Positions 25,690 to 33,105 are shown, counted from the stretch's first letter. The stretch is 64,000 nt of DNA from Candidatus Multivoradales bacterium (GCA_965248925.1 CBDFLE010000006.1:3168001-3232000), one strand, 5' to 3'. Translations and numbers: made by a program. Notes: generated by a model not told the origin, from the letters alone.

Positions 25690-26559
25690 ATGCGATGCTA
25701 TTTCGCCAAGGATCTCAAACGTCGCTTGATTGCCACCGGGGGTATCGCTGGTTGTTTGCTAGTGGTTCTTGCCTCCGGCGTGTTGGCGGAGTCATCCAAG
25801 GGGCGAGTGGGCTACCGAGCCCATGGTCGCTACGCGCGCCCGGCACCGCCGCGGGCGACGCAGCAGCCGCTGCCGATCGTCGGTACGGCATTTCCAGGCA
25901 ACGTGCCGCGCACGCAGCAGAAGTACTACCGCGTACTGCCGCCCTACGCCTCGAATACCCAACCCTTTCACAGCAATCCGCACTACCCGTCCGGGGTGCC
26001 GATCGATCCCCGCGCACTGCCCAGTTTAGGCGCTACTCGCTTCATCACGGTGCTGCCACAGCCGGTGGTCTATCTGCCGACCAACGCTGTGTTCCGGTCA
26101 CCGGCCGAGGTTCTGCAGGCCGTACCGCAGCCGATCGCGCCGCCACAGCAAGTAGGGACGGCCCCCTCCGGTGCGCCGATCTATGTGGTGGTGCAGGCCC
26201 CTCCGGCACCGCCGGCACCTTCCGCGCCTCCGGCCAGCACGCCCCCCGCCGTGTCCCCAGCAGCTCCTACGGCGGCGCCGGCACCCCCCCGCGGACCGGG
26301 CGGACTCCGTTTTCGCGTGCAGCCGGCCGATGCTCAGGTCTTTCTCGACGATCGGTTGCTCGGTGAGGGCGCTGCTCTTTCGGCCCAACTCGAAGCCATG
26401 GTGCTTGATGCCGGGGTCTACATGCTCGAAGTACGCCACCCAGACCATCGTTCGGAACGTCTGTTCTTTGGCGTCTATGCCGACACCGAGGTTGAAGTAG
26501 AAATCGATCTGACCCGTCGGGACGGCCGCCGCCGCTCGTGGGTAGATATTGATAGTTGA
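25690..26559 (+). CDS. Secreted Pro-rich protein with a C-terminal PEGA-like domain
   Basis: Hydrophobic N-terminus, Pro/Ala linker, and GGLRFRVQPADAQVFLDDRLLG...GVYMLEVRHPDH. Confidence 0.65.
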   Translation: MRCYFAKDLKRRLIATGGIAGCLLVVLASGVLAESSKGRVGYRAHGRYARPAPPRATQQPLPIVGTAFPGNVPRTQQKYYRVLPPYASNTQPFHSNPHYPSGVPIDPRALPSLGATRFITVLPQPVVYLPTNAVFRSPAEVLQAVPQPIAPPQQVGTAPSGAPIYVVVQAPPAPPAPSAPPASTPPAVSPAAPTAAPAPPRGPGGLRFRVQPADAQVFLDDRLLGEGAALSAQLEAMVLDAGVYMLEVRHPDHRSERLFFGVYADTEVEVEIDLTRRDGRRRSWVDIDS

Positions 26560-26779: not shown

Positions 26780-29587
26780 ATGGAAGGGACCACCCTGGGT
26801 CCGTATCGCCTCGAGAAGCGGCTAGGTGCTGGTGGTATGGGGGAGGTCTTCAAGGCGCATGACGACCGTCTGGGTCGATCAGTGGCGATCAAGAGGATCC
26901 TGCCCACTAAGCAGCAAAGTGCCGGTTTTCGTCAGCGTTTGCTAAGGGAAGCACGGGCTATTGCCCAGCTTAATCACCCGGCGATCGTTCAGATCTACGA
27001 CATCTTCCAAGACGGTGATAGCGACTGCATCGTCATGGAGTTTGTCGAGGGACAGCGCCTCGATAAGCTGATCCGCGAGAGCCGGCTCGACTTGGAAACG
27101 GTGTTGCGTTGCGGCAAAGAAATTGCGAGTGGGCTTGCTGAAGCCCATTCCAAGGGAATCCTGCATCGTGATCTGAAGACTGAGAATGTCCTGCTGAGCG
27201 CCGCCGGTGACGCCAAGCTGCTGGATTTCGGCTTGGCTCGCCCCCTCCGACCGACAGAGTTCGACGCCTCGCTCACCGCCCACGACCAGATGGTCGGCAC
27301 CAGCCGAACCTTGTCTCCCGAGTACGCCAGCGGCGACGAGATCGACCATCGCTCGGACCTTTTCCAGTTGGGAGTGCTGCTCTACGAAGCTTGTACCGGC
27401 AGCTCACCGTTCAAGGCCCAGAACACCCTCGCCACCCTCAAGCGAGTGATTCTGCACACCCAGGCACCGGTGGCGATGTTGCGCCCCGAGGTGCCGCCAG
27501 AGTTGTCGGAACTGATCGACAGGTTGTTGGAGAAGGACCCTGAGGATAGGCCGCAGAGCGCAGCCGAAGTGGCCGAGGAGCTGGCTCTGATGTTCGGCTC
27601 CACCACTTCGTCGGAATCGATGGTGCGCAGCAACCAGTATCGGCGGCCCTCGCGACTGACAGCGGTGCTTGCTGTGCGTCGGGGAACGTTTTGGCTCGCT
27701 GCTCTGGCCATGCTGCTGCTGGCGCTGGGGATAGGGTTTTACTTCGTTGGCGGGCGAGCCGGTCGCGAGCAACAAGGACCGGGCTTACTGCAGGCCAAGG
27801 ATTCGGTGGTGCTGGCGCATCTCGACAACCGTACCGGCGACGCGGATCTCGATCACTCCGTCGGCACCGCGTTGCGGGTGGGGCTCAATCAGTCTCGTTT
27901 TGCTTATGTGCTGCCGCCGGAGCGGGTAGCCGACGCTCTGGATCGGATGGAGCGGCAGCCGGGCTCGAGAATCGATCGCCAACTCGGCATCGAAATTTGC
28001 CAGCGGGAGGCCTCGAAGGCTCTGGTGAGCGGCAGTGTGGTCAAGGTGGGTGACAACTACAAGATCAGTGTTGAGCTGATCGACCCCGGCAATCAGCGTA
28101 GCGTGTTTACCTTCTCGGCCCCTGCCGAAGGGCGAGACGGGATCCTCAACGCGGTCGAGCTGGCGGCACGGGCCCTGCGCGCCAACCTAGGCGAGTCCTT
28201 GGCGACGATCAAAGAGAGCGCCCTGCCCTTGGAGAAGGTAACCACCCCCCATTTGCAGGCCCTTGAAGCCTACTCGCTGGCCGCCAGACATCATCTGCAG
28301 GGTGATCCCGAGGCCGCTATCCTGCTGCTCGAAGAAGCGCTTGAGATCGACCCCGGCTTTGCCATGGCGCACGCTCGCCTGGGTACTATTTATCGCAATT
28401 TGCAGCGCGGAGGGGAACTCGCCCCGAGGCATTTCGAGCGGGCCTTGGAGCTGCATGACCGACTGGCTCCCCTGGAGCGGCTCTATGTCGAAGGTTGGGT
28501 GGCCTCAACCCAGGGGGAACCGGGTGAGATGGTGCGGATCTGGTCGCTGATGAGTTCTCTTTACCCGCAACACGACTCCGGGCACTACAACCTGGGGATG
28601 GTCTACTGGCAGTTCCAGAATCAGTACCAGATGGCCGCAGAAGCCTTGCGCGAAGCCAGCGAGCTGGTCAATAACAGTCGCCGCTACCAGGCGATGATGA
28701 TGTACGGCTACTGTCAGCTGGCACTCGGTGAGCGTGAGGGTGCTCTGGTCAGCTTCGAAGAGGCCCGGCAGCAGCAGACGGACCAACCTGTGGCGGCTCT
28801 TGCCTTGGTAGATGCCTACCTTGCCGAGCGTCGTTACGACCCAGCGCGGCAGCTGGCGGAGAGGGTGGTTCGAGAGACCGCCGATCAGTGGCAGGTTCAG
28901 GCCAAGCTGCGTCTAGCTTTGTTGGAGATGGACCGGGGCCGTTTTCCAGCTGCCCTTGATCGGTTGACCGAGGTGATTGCCCAAGCCGAAGCGACGGGGC
29001 TCGCGCGGCCGGCCCTGGTCGCTCGCCTGGCTCGTATCGCCGTGCTCGAGATCGAAGGCGATCGGGATAGCTTCGCGCGCGAATTGGACATCTCGATCTC
29101 CTCCGCTCGCCAGCTGTTGGGCACCGAGAGCGCCGTGCTGAGCTCCTCTCCAACTACTTTGCTGGTGATGCTCGGCAAGCTTGGCTTACGCCATGGATCG
29201 GCTGAACAAGCACGGCAGATTTTCGGCTGGCTAGCGCCGCTGGCCGAAGAGACCGGATATGCGCTGCGCCGGGCCTACGTCAAGATCCTGGAAGGCGAGA
29301 TTCTAGCTTTTGAAGGACAGGTGCAGCTGGCTGACGAGCGTTTGCGCGAGGCGATCACTATCGCCGAGCCGATTCAGGCGCACGAAAGTCTGGCCCGTCT
29401 ATGGATGGCGGCGGGCCAAGAAGAGACCGCGGCGATCCACTTTGCTTGGCTGCGCCAGCACCGCTCACGCGCCTTTGTCGAGTGTGTCGGCTATTGCTTT
29501 GGTCGTGAACTCAATGTCTTGGCCTTGCAGCAGGCCGAGGAATGGCGGCCGCTGACAGCGAATGAAGCGGGATCGGACACCGACTAA
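26780..29587 (+). CDS. Membrane Ser/Thr protein kinase with C-terminal TolB-N-like and TPR region (resembles the receptor half of 'peptide modification system cyclases')
   Basis: Kinase motifs LGAGGMGEV, VAIK, HRDLKTEN, DFG, SPE, DLFQLG; TM FWLAALAMLLLALGIGFYFV; NRTGD, LNQSRF, LGESL, TPRs (IDPGFAMAHARLG); terminal WLRQHRSRAFVE...LNV. Confidence 0.9.
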   Translation: MEGTTLGPYRLEKRLGAGGMGEVFKAHDDRLGRSVAIKRILPTKQQSAGFRQRLLREARAIAQLNHPAIVQIYDIFQDGDSDCIVMEFVEGQRLDKLIRESRLDLETVLRCGKEIASGLAEAHSKGILHRDLKTENVLLSAAGDAKLLDFGLARPLRPTEFDASLTAHDQMVGTSRTLSPEYASGDEIDHRSDLFQLGVLLYEACTGSSPFKAQNTLATLKRVILHTQAPVAMLRPEVPPELSELIDRLLEKDPEDRPQSAAEVAEELALMFGSTTSSESMVRSNQYRRPSRLTAVLAVRRGTFWLAALAMLLLALGIGFYFVGGRAGREQQGPGLLQAKDSVVLAHLDNRTGDADLDHSVGTALRVGLNQSRFAYVLPPERVADALDRMERQPGSRIDRQLGIEICQREASKALVSGSVVKVGDNYKISVELIDPGNQRSVFTFSAPAEGRDGILNAVELAARALRANLGESLATIKESALPLEKVTTPHLQALEAYSLAARHHLQGDPEAAILLLEEALEIDPGFAMAHARLGTIYRNLQRGGELAPRHFERALELHDRLAPLERLYVEGWVASTQGEPGEMVRIWSLMSSLYPQHDSGHYNLGMVYWQFQNQYQMAAEALREASELVNNSRRYQAMMMYGYCQLALGEREGALVSFEEARQQQTDQPVAALALVDAYLAERRYDPARQLAERVVRETADQWQVQAKLRLALLEMDRGRFPAALDRLTEVIAQAEATGLARPALVARLARIAVLEIEGDRDSFARELDISISSARQLLGTESAVLSSSPTTLLVMLGKLGLRHGSAEQARQIFGWLAPLAEETGYALRRAYVKILEGEILAFEGQVQLADERLREAITIAEPIQAHESLARLWMAAGQEETAAIHFAWLRQHRSRAFVECVGYCFGRELNVLALQQAEEWRPLTANEAGSDTD

Positions 29588-30822
29588 CCACCAGAACCCG
29601 TGGGCTGGCCGCGCAAGGCCAGCGTCGGCCGAGAGTCCTCAGCCGCTGCCGGCACTCCACAGCCACAAACCGCGATGGAACCTTCCATGGCAGGCTCCAG
29701 GCCGAGTTCTTGCTCGACGTTGGCGCCGTTGATGGCGGCGCTAAAGAAAGCTCCCAAGCCCAGCTCGGCGGCTACCAGGTAGAAGGTCTGGCTGAGGTGG
29801 GCGGCGTCCATCAGGACCACCCCATAGGTCTTGGCACTGTCGCCATATTTCCAGAAATTGCGTCGAAAGCGGGCGGTCAGAAACACCAGCACCTGGGCCC
29901 CAGAGGGAAAAGACTGGCCCGCGGTTAGTTGGTCGGCTAGTTGTTCTACCCGTTCTGGCGCCAAGGCTCGTACCAAGCTCAGTCCGTGCTGGCCAGTGTT
30001 GTAGTGGTAGAAGCCGGCAGCCAAGTCTTCGACGTCGCGGACCAGGGGATAGGCTTCTATGGGATGCAGCGCGCCGCCTGAAGGACTGGTCTTGTGTAGC
30101 ACCTCGAAATCGGCCGACAGCCTCGAGCTACCGTGGCAGCCGAAGACCTGGAACAGCAAGGTAGATAGATCTTGCAGCCGTAAAGAGCGCCGAGGATTGA
30201 AGCGGCGAGTGGTTCTGCGCTGAGCTAGCAGGCGGTAGAACGGGCGATCAGTCTCGGCTGTCGGTAGGGGTTCAGGAGATGCCGCGTTGGTCGGCTGGTG
30301 AAACGCTGTTGGCGCTACCCCGCGCTGGGCGGCGAATTCGGTGAATAGCCGCTCGTTGTTGCGGACCAGCTGGTTTTGCTCGTCCTCATCATTCGGCACT
30401 CCCAAGTCTTGATCTCGCCAGCGGTTCATGAAGTGGTAGAGCGCCGCCTGGGCTGGCCAGCCGGCCTCCCCGATGCGCTGATCGCGCTCGCGAAGAGCCG
30501 TTGGGCCGGGCTCCTCCTGGTCGCTGAGTAGCAGCCCAATATCGATCAACTTGGCGATCAGCTGTGGCTTGGCAGCGGTTCGTTCGAGCAGCAGGTCGAC
30601 CGCAAGCCACTGGTCGCGGGGTACGCTCAGCAGTAGCTCGACTTCGCTGGTAGTGATGCAGTGGCGGGTCGAAGTAAGCAGCGAAAGAGCTTGCAACTCA
30701 GTCTGAGAGCGCAGCTCGACCGCGCCGCGGAGCAGAGCCCCGAGATCGACGACCTGCTGGTCCGCGAGTTCGAAGAACAGGTTGCGAGGCCGCTTGACGC
30801 GCAGTGTCGATTCTTCTGTCAT
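29584..30822 (-). CDS. SagB/nitroreductase-family putative peptide maturation dehydrogenase (FMN-dependent)
   Basis: RRTTRRF, HKTSPSGGALHPIEAYPLV, GFYHY, RFRRNFWKY, MDAAHLSQTFYL, LGLGAFFSAAIN, plus a ~190-aa N-terminal extension (DLGALLRG..., AALYHFMNRWRD). Confidence 0.9.
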   Translation of the reverse strand: MTEESTLRVKRPRNLFFELADQQVVDLGALLRGAVELRSQTELQALSLLTSTRHCITTSEVELLLSVPRDQWLAVDLLLERTAAKPQLIAKLIDIGLLLSDQEEPGPTALRERDQRIGEAGWPAQAALYHFMNRWRDQDLGVPNDEDEQNQLVRNNERLFTEFAAQRGVAPTAFHQPTNAASPEPLPTAETDRPFYRLLAQRRTTRRFNPRRSLRLQDLSTLLFQVFGCHGSSRLSADFEVLHKTSPSGGALHPIEAYPLVRDVEDLAAGFYHYNTGQHGLSLVRALAPERVEQLADQLTAGQSFPSGAQVLVFLTARFRRNFWKYGDSAKTYGVVLMDAAHLSQTFYLVAAELGLGAFFSAAINGANVEQELGLEPAMEGSIAVCGCGVPAAAEDSRPTLALRGQPTGSGG

Positions 30823-30933
30823 GGGTCAATTTGGCCCCTGGACCGACCCGCGGGATAGCTGTATCGAGAGCTTCGAGGTCGGTATTCGACCCGTGTTTGG
30901 CCTTCTCGCAGATGCACGATGCCCAGATACAAC

Positions 30934-30980
30934 AAACCCCCCAGACTCGTACTCAACCGTAGCTGGAGTCGGGGGGTTTT
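30934..30980 (-). terminator. Stem-loop between the precursor and dehydrogenase genes (terminator or mRNA-stabilising hairpin)
   Basis: Minus strand AAAACCCCCC-GACTC-CAGC-TACG-GTTG-AGTAC-GAGTC-T-GGGGGGTTT, followed by GTTGT; 12 nt after the precursor stop. Confidence 0.7.
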
Positions 30981-30992
30981 CGGGACTGACGG

Positions 30993-31292
30993 TCAGTGTA
31001 CGAGCGAATCGTCCGTCAGGAAAGGAACCCAGGGCAAGATTCGACGCCGACTGGAAGCCGACAAATCCTTGACCCCAGCCGCCAGTTCGGCGCTGCCCGG
31101 CAAGGTGACACTCTGCGGAATGTCCGCCGGATCGACGATCAGTCCGAGCTGCGCGAAGGCAGCTGAAGGATCCTCTCGCAGCTGAGTTCTAAAAGTTGGG
31201 TTGTGGTGGACTTGCCGCAGTAGCTCGAGCTGCCGCTGTGGCAAAGGGTCGCTGGATAGCGAGCTTCTTAAGTGGGAATTCGCCAGACGCAC
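30993..31292 (-). CDS. NHLP (nitrile hydratase-like leader)-related RiPP precursor peptide, ~99 aa
   Basis: GTG 31292 follows AAGGGGGG. Sequence MRLANSHLRSSLSSDPLPQRQLELLRQVHHNPTFRTQLREDPSAAFAQLGLIVDPADIPQSVTLPGSAELAAGVKDLSASSRRRILPWVPFLTDDSLVH carries the LL....P.FR..L..DP.AA..QLG leader motif and lies directly upstream of the SagB-like gene. Confidence 0.8.
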   Translation of the reverse strand: MRLANSHLRSSLSSDPLPQRQLELLRQVHHNPTFRTQLREDPSAAFAQLGLIVDPADIPQSVTLPGSAELAAGVKDLSASSRRRILPWVPFLTDDSLVH

Positions 31293-31534: not shown

Positions 31535-31738
31535 TCAGCAGGACTTGATTTCTGCCCAGGAGGCACAGACTTTGCGGATTTCACCAGGGTCGGCGCGGTC
31601 TAGAGCATCGGCAGTGAAGGCGCGGATTTCAGCGTCTTCGATGCCGGATTGGCGCATCGCCTGCCGAATCGCGCTGACCCAAGCGAATGGGTTGTGGCTG
31701 CTCAAACAAATTTCAATGTCGGGGTATCGCGGGTTCAT
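31535..31738 (-). CDS. Small hypothetical protein
   Basis: MNPRYPDIEICLSSHNPFAWVSAIRQAMRQSGIEDAEIRAF...CASW; compact alpha/beta pattern that I recall from a small uncharacterised family. Confidence 0.6.
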   Translation of the reverse strand: MNPRYPDIEICLSSHNPFAWVSAIRQAMRQSGIEDAEIRAFTADALDRADPGEIRKVCASWAEIKSC

Positions 31739-32061
31739 CAGCATTCTTGGCGCCTCGTCTAACAAGTTAGACGCTTGAAGGCTGGAATTCGTTCCGTATG
31801 CCTTGGTGATTTTTCAGATTCCGTGGTCTTCCAGGGCCGCCTGAGAAAAAAAGGTGCAAGACTGATTCCAGGCGCTGGGTAGTGTCAGGCAGCAACAGCG
31901 GCGCGGAGAGCGTATGCCGGGGTTGACGATCCATGTCCTCCGGATGGGGCGGTTGAGAGGGCGGCTGGGTTATCCTAGATTCCCCGGTGCCAAAGGTGGG
32001 GATCGATGGGGACTTTCCCCGCTGCGATCCCCTTTCACCTCGATAGCAAGGAGTCCAACCT

Positions 32062-33105
32062 GTGCCAGATCCTCGAGTCCCGCGAAGGCGGTGGACACCC
32101 GTCGTCGTCGTTCTCGGCGCCTTGCTGGCCTCGGTGGCAGTCGGCCAAACACCGGCCCGACTCGCCAGCCGACTGAACTCGGATCTCGATCTGCTGTTGC
32201 AGCTTCTCGAAGGAGAGTTCGACAATTACTGGCAAGCGCGAATCGACCGCGAGAGTGAGGTCGAATTCCCTCACCGCCGCGTTCACGCGCTCTTCTCCCG
32301 CGTCGAGCTGGCGGCGCTGGGCCCGCATGTGTTCTACGTTCAGCAGACGGAGGATGGCGACTCGGCGAAGATCGTCGGCCAGTGGTTGTACAGCTTTCGC
32401 ACCGATCTCGAGCAGCAGGAGATCGAGATGTCAGTGCATACCTTTGCTGATCCCGCGGCGATGGTGGATGCCCATCGTCAGCCGGCCAAATGGAAGCAGG
32501 TGAGACTCGCTGATCTGAGCAGCCATCCCGGCTGTGAGATCTACTGGCAACGGCGTGAAATCCTCTTTGTTGGACAAACCCTGGAGGGGGCGTGTCGGAT
32601 TGGCTCAGAACATTCCACCGACCCCTTGGTGGTGACCGAAGATTTCCGCTTGACTGCCGACGGGCTCTGGCTTGAGCAGCGTGCCGAGACGGTCGAGGGT
32701 GAGTATGCCTTCGGCCCTCGTGGGGGAGTGGCACAGCAACTTCGCAGAGTGCGCTATTTTGATTGCTGGAGCGCTGTTAAACCGCAGCAAGAGGATCGGG
32801 AATGGGATGTGTGGCGTGATCTCGTGCTCCACGATCAGGGAGGGGTGGTGGAGTTGAAGCCGGCGGATGGCAGAGTGGCCCGGTTCAGCTTTGAACTCTT
32901 TCAGGCGGTCTTTGAGGGCGAAGACCGAGTGCATGTGTTGCAGCTGGCGGTGCACCAAGTGGGTACAAAAGAATCGATCGCCTACAGTTGGTCGAGTCCC
33001 GCTAGTTCCCAGTTAGGTGTCAACCTGCGTTTTCTCCAGATCGGCTGCACCCGTCGTCCAGCAGAAGCTCAGGCCTTGGGCATCAGCAGCCAGAGCAGTA
33101 GGTAG
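32062..33105 (+). CDS. CpcT/CpeT chromophore-lyase-like secreted protein
   Basis: Signal peptide; LEGEFDNYWQ, HRRVHALF, FYVQQ, W/R-LYSF and PGCEIYWQR motifs of the CpeT-like beta-barrel, plus a second C-terminal domain (LHDQGG). Confidence 0.7.
   Translation: MPDPRVPRRRWTPVVVVLGALLASVAVGQTPARLASRLNSDLDLLLQLLEGEFDNYWQARIDRESEVEFPHRRVHALFSRVELAALGPHVFYVQQTEDGDSAKIVGQWLYSFRTDLEQQEIEMSVHTFADPAAMVDAHRQPAKWKQVRLADLSSHPGCEIYWQRREILFVGQTLEGACRIGSEHSTDPLVVTEDFRLTADGLWLEQRAETVEGEYAFGPRGGVAQQLRRVRYFDCWSAVKPQQEDREWDVWRDLVLHDQGGVVELKPADGRVARFSFELFQAVFEGEDRVHVLQLAVHQVGTKESIAYSWSSPASSQLGVNLRFLQIGCTRRPAEAQALGISSQSSR

Follow-up and report, generated by a model that had tools for sequence, protein, structure and literature searches.

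The four genes between positions 26780 and 31744 of a 64,000-nucleotide stretch of DNA from Candidatus Multivoradales bacterium (GCA_965248925.1, CBDFLE010000006.1:3168001-3232000; hereafter the window) encode a membrane kinase-sensor protein, a SagB-type dehydrogenase, a small NHLP-clan peptide and a 69-aa protein. We believe that this locus is probably a four-gene signalling module, in which the cassette represented by the annotation models TIGR04509 (peptide), TIGR04510 (cyclase) and TIGR04511 (dehydrogenase) occurs as a variant with Ser/Thr kinase output. Comparisons at the sequence level indicate, with high confidence, that a kinase has taken the place of the cyclase on a sensor specific to this cassette. 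Throughout an entire acidobacterial family, the sensor gene remains linked to the genes of an NHLP-clan peptide and a YcaO-less SagB-type dehydrogenase. The swap and this linkage follow from the matches to TIGR04510 and Pkinase, the grouping of the ectodomains, and the loci of the relatives. The features of the locus are as follows.

26780..29587 (+): kinase-sensor gene, encoding a single-pass membrane Ser/Thr kinase with a TIGR04510-type, predicted extracytoplasmic sensor (open reading frame (ORF) of 935 aa; Pkinase and TIGR04510 matches)
26804..27562 (+): Hanks-type kinase domain, residues 9-261 (Pkinase match; catalytic residues invariant among aligned orthologues)
27680..27760 (+): sole transmembrane segment, about residues 301-327 (Kyte-Doolittle scan)
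27767..29584 (+): ectodomain of the sensor (residues 330-935), in which TPRs come after a post-membrane domain that has N-x-T-G-D and Q-S-R motifs (hidden Markov model (HMM) and alignment)
29584..30822 (-): TIGR04511 SagB-type flavin mononucleotide (FMN) dehydrogenase, 412 aa (TIGR04511, 313.7 bits)
30523..30822 (-): N-terminal domain of the dehydrogenase, about residues 1-100, putatively of the leader-recognition (RRE)-like kind (AlphaFold2 model)
30931..30982 (-): hairpin and U-rich run in the spacer between the peptide and dehydrogenase genes (folding energy)
30993..31292 (-): NHLP-clan peptide, 99 aa from a GTG start (TIGR04509 and Os1348 family matches)
31535..31744 (-): 69-aa protein of unknown family ('small76'), conserved in kinase-form loci

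According to the first-pass annotation, which was made from the sequence alone, the kinase-sensor joins a Hanks-type kinase to the post-membrane part of the TIGR04510 protein, and an alignment of its two halves with the respective models was proposed as the check. Both halves aligned as proposed. Pkinase matches residues 9-261 with 180.4 bits, and TIGR04510 matches residues 305-919 with 318.2 bits, which corresponds to profile positions 214-813 of 814. The class III cyclase-like domain of the model (positions about 2-191) is absent, and the Pkinase domain stands in its place. The curated cut-off of 400 bits is not reached, because this cyclase part, about the first 200 positions, is missing. 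The remaining features of TIGR04510 are present, namely a single transmembrane segment followed by a sensor/TPR domain (TPRs at about residues 489-740), and a gene adjoining those of a TIGR04511 protein and a TIGR04509-like peptide. The kinase domain has the glycine-rich loop, the VAIK lysine, the alpha-C glutamate and the HRD, DFG and SPE/APE motifs that define the Hanks type, and G16, G18, G19, G21, K38, E57, H129-R130-D131, K133, N136 and D149-F150-G151 are invariant among 22 orthologues. One hydrophobic stretch, at about residues 296-344, occurs in all 22 aligned kinase forms (as two overlapping Kyte-Doolittle windows in three proteins), and this sole transmembrane segment would leave the TPR part outside the cell and the kinase in the cytoplasm.

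The sensor part is considerably nearer to TIGR04510 than that of ordinary kinase-TPR proteins, whose equal closeness would have spoken against the original proposal. The generic metagenomic kinase-TPR proteins P0013, P0018 and P0037 and the BTAD form P0064 score 192-210 bits on the model, compared with 318-327 bits for the cassette kinase proteins and 452.8-641.7 bits for true cyclase members. Within the window's own genome, the sensor part of the model gives 318.9 bits for the kinase-sensor and 69.5 bits for the next-best protein. Moreover, a homologue search with residues 330-935 returned ten matches at 93-96% query coverage (E from 2.5e-118 to 9.9e-64) and then a gap, after which the matches began at E = 1e-46 with 34-71% coverage. 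Against the Protein Data Bank (PDB), the ectodomain had only generic TPR matches. The resemblance of the post-membrane part to TIGR04510, which the first-pass annotation had noted, is thus real at the level of the profile; however, the generic proteins share much of the post-membrane architecture, and motifs of the N-x-T-G-D type, which that annotation had cited, are therefore not by themselves specific to the cassette.

In the ectodomain tree (66 rows), all cassette-linked kinase forms, the cyclase forms and the proteins that pass TIGR04510 fall into one 31-row group (SH-aLRT 94). Generic kinase-TPR and BTAD-TPR proteins lie outside it in 35 of 36 cases, and the exception, P0015, itself passes TIGR04510 (452.8 bits). 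The acidobacterial cyclase pair is placed among the kinase forms, and the proteobacterial cyclases are near the base of the group. In the tree of kinase domains, the 17 cassette kinases and four metagenome matches form a clade (98). Two proteins, L050 and P0005, combine a cassette-type ectodomain with a kinase domain from elsewhere in this tree; because their kinase lineage is different, at least two independent kinase acquisitions on the cassette-type ectodomain are suggested. The sister of the cassette-kinase clade (99, on a long branch) is a 1060-aa protein of the same genome, encoded outside the window (L126:4860-8042(-), equal to G000:C6:3412859-3416041). It consists of a Pkinase domain (12-267), a TIGR04510-like cyclase domain (292-480, 198 bits), a transmembrane segment and TPRs. 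This order of domains may represent an intermediate architecture, and the swap possibly proceeded through a kinase-cyclase fusion that later lost its cyclase.

Conservation of the linkage was assessed in relatives. TIGR04511 was found above its cut-off in 18 of the 41 genomes searched, the window's own included, and some match to this model occurs in 22 of the 23 genomes of the same family. The 24 relatives' loci counted here are the matches that span most of the TIGR04511 profile, two partial matches on short frames being left out. A sensor gene adjoins the dehydrogenase gene in 18 of them, a kinase form in 17 and a full TIGR04510 cyclase (641.7 bits) in one; in two of the six others the contig ends on the side in question, and four have no sensor within about 6 kb. 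The peptide is detectable in 17 of the 24 loci. The first-pass annotation had made its proposal depend on the recurrence of the kinase-dehydrogenase-peptide linkage in other genomes, and the linkage does recur (17 of 24 relatives' loci). One genome of the family, G011, holds both a cyclase cassette and a kinase cassette. In two others, G008 and G010, the 69-aa gene, the peptide gene and the convergent kinase-sensor gene lie together (L132:5252-9463 on G008:C164; L133:1050-5388 on G010:C620), and the sole TIGR04511 dehydrogenase is encoded on another contig. Therefore, it is the sensor, and not its own enzyme, that the peptide accompanies in these genomes. One orphan dehydrogenase gene of this pair adjoins a DDE transposase (L037). 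Genes for an acyl-CoA dehydrogenase, a TetR protein and a patatin also recur near the cassette; since they do so in only 4-6 of the 18 kinase-form loci (the patatin near the kinase in 4 of 18), we rejected them as parts of the cassette and take them as local synteny.

A wider survey of neighbourhoods, of the kind that the first-pass annotation had recommended, extended these observations to the output domains. One genome per species was scanned, which yielded 386 dehydrogenase relatives, and the counts for wider loci refer to the best 80 of these 386. A partner with kinase, transmembrane segment and ectodomain is present in 13 of the 80 loci, all of them in Acidobacteriota. The ectodomain without a kinase was found in four, comprising three full cyclase forms, two of which belong to metagenome-assembled genomes (MAGs) of a Lysobacter and a betaproteobacterium, and one locus cut by a contig end. 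An AAA-containing TPR partner accounts for 46 loci (45 of the 51 in Actinomycetota and one of the two in Gemmatimonadota), and 17 loci, several at contig ends, had no partner. According to Pfam searches of three AAA-TPR partners, two consist of a Zn-ribbon, Guanylate_cyc, AAA_16 and TPRs, and one of Trans_reg_C, BTAD, AAA_16 and TPRs. The others were classed by phmmer with two N-terminal domain queries taken from these proteins; by this classification, 25 of the 46 have a cyclase-type N-terminus alone, 18 also have a BTAD-type region, and three have neither. Twenty-eight are encoded on the strand of the dehydrogenase, mostly just upstream, and 18 are convergent just downstream; by the same phmmer queries, 24 of the 28 are of the cyclase type, and 16 of the 18 have BTAD and a cyclase-like region. 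L124:3567-6671(+) and L059:8185-12069(-) are examples of these STAND-type partners among loci L047-L125. The variety of partners indicates that the peptide, the dehydrogenase and a TPR-bearing signalling protein are constant and that the output domain is variable. The proposed exchange of outputs is thereby borne out in two ways, by a cyclase on the same kind of ectodomain and by STAND cyclases or regulators of the Streptomyces antibiotic regulatory protein (SARP) type beside the same peptide-dehydrogenase pair. With four outputs, namely a kinase, a membrane cyclase, a STAND cyclase and a SARP-type regulator, the constant part can be argued to be a signal-generating or signal-sensing unit.

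The first-pass annotation had linked the dehydrogenase to TIGR04511, and this was correct: over profile positions 1-371 of 380, the protein reaches 313.7 bits, where 240 are required, and no other gene of the genome does so. It also matches TIGR03605 (120.6 bits) and Nitroreductase (65.8 bits), the latter over residues 199-389, after an extension of about 195 aa. W324-K325-Y326 is invariant in 15 dehydrogenase sequences; a Lys-Tyr motif is catalytically important in dehydrogenases of thiazole/oxazole-modified microcin (TOMM) systems, and alpha,beta-dehydrogenation by a related flavoenzyme is described in the same source (according to the relevant passages of bioRxiv 10.1101/2023.09.25.559410). 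The AlphaFold2 model, with a mean predicted local distance difference test score (pLDDT) of 84.6, has an N-domain of beta-beta-beta-alpha-alpha-alpha order (strands 8-55, helices 58-94) and a C-terminal nitroreductase fold. This N-domain may be an RRE-like domain that recognizes the leader. By sequence as well as by fold, the best solved structure over the whole length of the protein is the cyanobactin oxidase ThcOx/CyaGox (PDB 5lq4, 8pz5; structural match to ThcOx with E = 2.6e-16 over 416 columns), which has the same arrangement of an N-terminal region of the leader-binding type and an FMN nitroreductase domain. However, the identity is about 24%, and ThcOx oxidises azolines made by YcaO, for which there is no counterpart here. 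The orphan dehydrogenase L034:5014-7308(+) on G008:C24 lies in a 765-aa open frame, with a putative N-terminal extension of about 350 residues compared with the usual form.

The frame of the peptide is open from 31427, and the GTG at 31292 is the most likely start; the resulting 99 aa agree with the length of the orthologues, which are 87-98 aa long and start with ATG. The peptide had been described as bearing an NHLP leader. The family relationship stands, because the window peptide matches TIGR04509 and all 10 of the orthologues searched match both this model (best E = 6e-9) and that of the Os1348 family; membership of TIGR04509 does not, because the window peptide obtains 20-21.2 bits (E = 2e-4 to 5e-4) against a cut-off of 34. 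We therefore regard it as a divergent relative of TIGR04509 below the threshold for members. Searched against the PDB, the peptide profile matches the alpha subunits of nitrile hydratase (E = 3.6e-4). The peptides have in common a helical leader, the V-x-L-P-S motif and, at the C-terminus, an aromatic W-x-x-F motif, and the tail is variable, with no Cys, Ser or Thr conserved in the aligned tails. A search of the whole genome (7.98 Mb, 96.9% complete) with the YcaO model PF02624 gave no match. Neither of the two marks of a TOMM system, a YcaO protein and conserved Cys, Ser or Thr positions in the core, was thus found. Azole formation is therefore excluded, and we infer that the dehydrogenase performs some other two-electron oxidation of the peptide. 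In a Haliangiales MAG, a single open frame (L048:6196-6966(+)) holds two tandem NHLP-like peptide copies, and an 888-aa kinase that lacks the cassette-type ectodomain is encoded downstream of the dehydrogenase on the same strand (L048:8299-10962(+)).

The fourth gene, that of the 69-aa protein upstream of the peptide gene, was not listed in the first-pass annotation. It is present in 12 of the 24 relatives' loci, and among the 80 wider loci it occurs in 8 of 13 kinase forms and in 0 of the 67 others, so that within cassettes it is confined to kinase forms. The predicted structure is beta-alpha-alpha-alpha-beta (pLDDT 83.8). The protein has no Pfam, NCBIfam or PADLOC family, its model has no PDB match in Foldseek at E <= 0.001, a search of the ESM Atlas gave no lead, and a search for longer or fused forms gave none that was informative, which is weak evidence. 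Multi-domain matches of its profile were discarded, because the TPR protein P0226 shows spurious repeats and the matches to DMP19 and CMD are weak. The family comprises 331 representative clusters at E <= 0.001. Stand-alone paralogues were recorded at L127-L131, L134-L137 and L139-L142, some in genomes of the same order that have no TIGR04511 match, and a weak second match lies in the window's own genome (G000:C5:1365965-1366120, E = 1e-4). With low confidence, we consider the protein a candidate substrate or adaptor of the kinase.

These components suggest how the module might operate. The dehydrogenase would hold the peptide by its helical leader, docked on the RRE-like N-domain, and, by means of FMN and the Lys-Tyr motif, would take two hydrogens from somewhere in the C-terminal aromatic tail. 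An alpha,beta-dehydrogenation in this tail is conceivable, because an azoline cannot form without YcaO. The peptide, either matured or in a complex, would be the cognate partner of the TPR sensor, which would respond by Ser/Thr phosphorylation, as the canonical form would by making a cyclic nucleotide; the kinase-specific 69-aa protein could be the substrate or adaptor. We consider signalling, rather than antibiotic production alone, to be the likelier role of the module. We propose only tentatively, as rather less likely than not, that the ectodomain has the peptide as its direct ligand. This proposal has indirect support from the arrangement of the genes in G008 and G010 and from a comparison of distances. 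Over 16 loci, peptide distances correlate with those of the ectodomain (r = 0.71), of the dehydrogenase N-domain (r = 0.60) and of the kinase domain (r = 0.38); the partial correlation between peptide and ectodomain given the dehydrogenase N-domain is 0.49 (p = 0.002), and the reverse partial is 0.11 (p = 0.23). A complex prediction for residues 330-935 and the peptide, both supplied as alignments, scored 0.02, which bears on neither side.

Several observations weigh against this interpretation. The ectodomain tree comes from a quick search with SH-aLRT support, without bootstraps, and is unrooted, which weakens the grouping, and the scores that generic kinase-TPR proteins still reach on TIGR04510 weaken the specificity of the ectodomain. 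The distance correlations derive from related sequences whose kinship was ignored, and fast-evolving parts correlate in any case, so that they are suggestive only. Neither the peptide nor the dehydrogenase nor the 69-aa protein has a signal sequence or a membrane or hydrophobic segment, the aligned peptides have no conserved double-glycine site, and no transporter is linked to the peptide in the kinase-form loci; the access of the peptide to a periplasmic sensor is therefore hard to account for. In the forms of Actinomycetota, the TPR domain is cytoplasmic, and a single model in which the TPRs bind the peptide therefore needs different compartments in different phyla. Finally, in 13 of 16 further places examined, the 69-aa protein has paralogues that lie apart from any cassette, some of them in genomes without one.

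A more far-reaching reading, which we think somewhat unlikely when taken as a whole, is that the cassette belongs to an undescribed and widespread class of peptide signalling, in which an NHLP peptide oxidised by SagB independently of YcaO would be the cognate ligand of dedicated TPR sensors. This class would involve new chemistry, perhaps alpha,beta-dehydrogenation in the W-x-x-F tail, and repeatedly exchanged outputs (the Hanks-type kinase of this locus, a cyclase of the cGMP type in Proteobacteria, and a STAND cyclase or DNA-binding SARP form in Actinomycetota), with the 69-aa protein as a phospho-relay partner.

Alternatively, the locus could be a minimal cluster for an antibiotic or bacteriocin-like peptide that is made on the ribosome and modified after translation (RiPP), in which the dehydrogenase would mature the peptide into a bioactive product and the kinase, or elsewhere the cyclase or SARP, senses an unrelated envelope or environmental cue and only turns production on. 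SARP/BTAD-AAA-TPR proteins, which are typical pathway regulators of antibiotic clusters, were found as partners in Actinomycetota loci, and the variable C-terminal tail of the peptide resembles the hypervariable cores of RiPPs. Furthermore, Os1348 of Pseudomonas sp. Os17, the sole studied relative in the peptide clan, is accompanied by a YcaO-less SagB-type dehydrogenase and contributes to antibiotic activity, as the relevant part of the published account states (PMC7726476). However, the 18 kinase-form loci share no conserved gene for export, proteolysis or immunity, and the additional enzymes and efflux genes described for the Os17 cluster in the same account are absent here. The sensor is the largest partner, the peptide gene is kept beside it even where the dehydrogenase is elsewhere, and the divergence of the peptide tracks the ectodomain better than the peptide-binding enzyme. 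We therefore consider exclusive antibiotic production unlikely.

A reversed flow of information on the cytoplasmic side appears to us quite improbable. In such a scheme, the sensor would be activated by an outside cue, and the phosphorylation of the peptide, of the dehydrogenase or of the 69-aa protein by the kinase would make the peptide-dehydrogenase pair a regulated effector instead of the signal. In every architecture, the output domain, the peptide and the dehydrogenase are together in the cytoplasm (the TPR part being extracytoplasmic in the membrane forms), and the peptides lack export signals, both of which would suit this reading; the confinement of the 69-aa gene to kinase forms would also fit a kinase-specific substrate. 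However, a cyclic-nucleotide output would need a receptor protein to act on the peptide, and none is conserved in the cassette loci examined. Moreover, the sole invariant serine of the 69-aa protein, S24, lies within a predicted helix, and its other Ser/Thr positions vary.

The idea that the kinase is a peptide-modifying enzyme, which like the kinase domains of class III/IV lanthipeptide synthetases would phosphorylate Ser/Thr in the core and replace YcaO, has very little to commend it. Several peptide tails are rich in Ser, and the kinase domain matches LanL (94 bits) and LanKC (53.9 bits). However, generic kinases match LanL at the same level (71-80 bits), the scores fall far short of the cut-offs of 650 and 575 and concern the kinase domain only, and the HMM scan found no lyase or cyclase domain beside it. 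No Ser or Thr of the tail is conserved, the orthologue at L033 having none after the L-P-S motif, and a 600-aa extracytoplasmic sensor is unexpected on a biosynthetic kinase. An anti-phage defence role was rejected, because the PADLOC matches were generic ones to the kinase domain and no family was found for the dehydrogenase, the peptide or the 69-aa protein.

The locus, for which we prefer the signalling reading, can be compared with the canonical cassette and with four described systems, of which ThcOx has been treated above. Literature searches by TIGR accession and by family name yielded no paper on the cassette, and likewise none on a stand-alone SagB with NHLP; the three-gene cassette is known only from annotation models. 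The window's locus and the canonical cassette have in common a dehydrogenase that passes TIGR04511, a peptide that in the window matches TIGR04509 below threshold, a sensor that aligns to TIGR04510 positions 214-813, and a convergent sensor gene in both kinase and cyclase forms. They differ in the Pkinase domain that replaces the cyclase, in the failure of the TIGR04510 cut-off and in the additional 69-aa gene. The peptide gene precedes the dehydrogenase gene here and at L054, whereas the dehydrogenase gene comes first in two proteobacterial cyclase loci. Canonical cyclase forms were found in G011, which belongs to the same family, and in the Lysobacter and betaproteobacterial MAGs.

According to the passages of An et al. 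(2013; PMC3770947) that deal with it, XC_0250 of Xanthomonas campestris is a protein of 886 aa with a class III cyclase (aa 32-191) and TPRs (aa 413-625); it makes cGMP, which acts on XC_0249, and XC_0249 makes c-di-GMP and affects biofilm. By this published description alone, XC_0250 resembles TIGR04510 in its order of class III cyclase and then TPRs. The predicted output of the window's sensor is phosphorylation rather than cGMP, and those passages mention no peptide or dehydrogenase for XC_0250.

The NHLP-Burk TOMM clusters with a TIGR03903 kinase/cyclase fusion, as portrayed in the relevant sections of Haft et al. (2010; PMC2887384), are similar in that one actinobacterial AAA-TPR partner matches TIGR03903 (positions 285-863, the cyclase-ATPase part, 193 bits) and in that the window's genome also encodes the protein with kinase, TIGR04510-like cyclase, transmembrane segment and TPRs. 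In contrast, those sections assign YcaO cyclodehydratases and transporters to the clusters, and this genome has no YcaO. The window kinase matches TIGR03903 through its kinase domain only (103.2 bits; cut-off 705.75).

The Os1348-Os1351 (OS3) cluster of Pseudomonas sp. Os17 similarly combines an NHLP-clan small protein and a SagB-type dehydrogenase without SagC/SagD, and all ten peptides that we searched match the Os1348 family model; the peptide profile itself matches the Os1348 structure 6LK7 only weakly (E = 0.19). According to the part of the report that concerns this cluster (PMC7726476), it also contains an acetyltransferase, a HEXXH peptidase and efflux genes, with no sensor kinase or cyclase, and the authors raise a possible signalling role for the Os1348 system.

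The kinase variant amounts to a natural domain-swap experiment, and this form may be easier to assay, by autophosphorylation, than the cyclase form. If the peptide were the ligand, the long-missing input of the TIGR04510 cyclase family would be named, the YcaO-less SagB enzymes would obtain a first function, and the kinase-sensor would be a rare bacterial Hanks kinase that acts as a peptide receptor.

The layout of the locus agrees with the first-pass annotation, whose kinase, dehydrogenase, hairpin and peptide of about 99 aa were all recovered at the positions that it gave. The ORF calls also reproduce the 4-bp overlap between the stop codons of the convergent kinase and dehydrogenase genes (bases 29584-29587). 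No YcaO, radical SAM protein, lanthipeptide enzyme or transporter is encoded in the flanks, as had been asserted. The stretch 30915-31000(-), which begins within the final codons of the peptide gene and extends into the spacer that separates it from the dehydrogenase gene, forms a long stem of -34.1 kcal/mol (z = -2.77; 1 of 200 shuffles as stable), and a UUUGUUGU run follows the stem. A simple terminator scan did not list this hairpin, because its loop is longer than the limit of the scan; the hairpin is likely a partial terminator. The flanking genes encode a sulfatase, a patatin, a CpeT-family protein, a BamB-like protein and a desaturase. Immediately upstream of the kinase gene lies a Pro/Ala-rich ORF of 289 aa without a Pfam family (25690-26559(+)). 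The CpeT/CpcT family is known from phycobiliprotein lyases, and its domain (67 bits) occurs here in a 347-aa protein (32062-33105(+)) of an apparently non-phototrophic acidobacterium.

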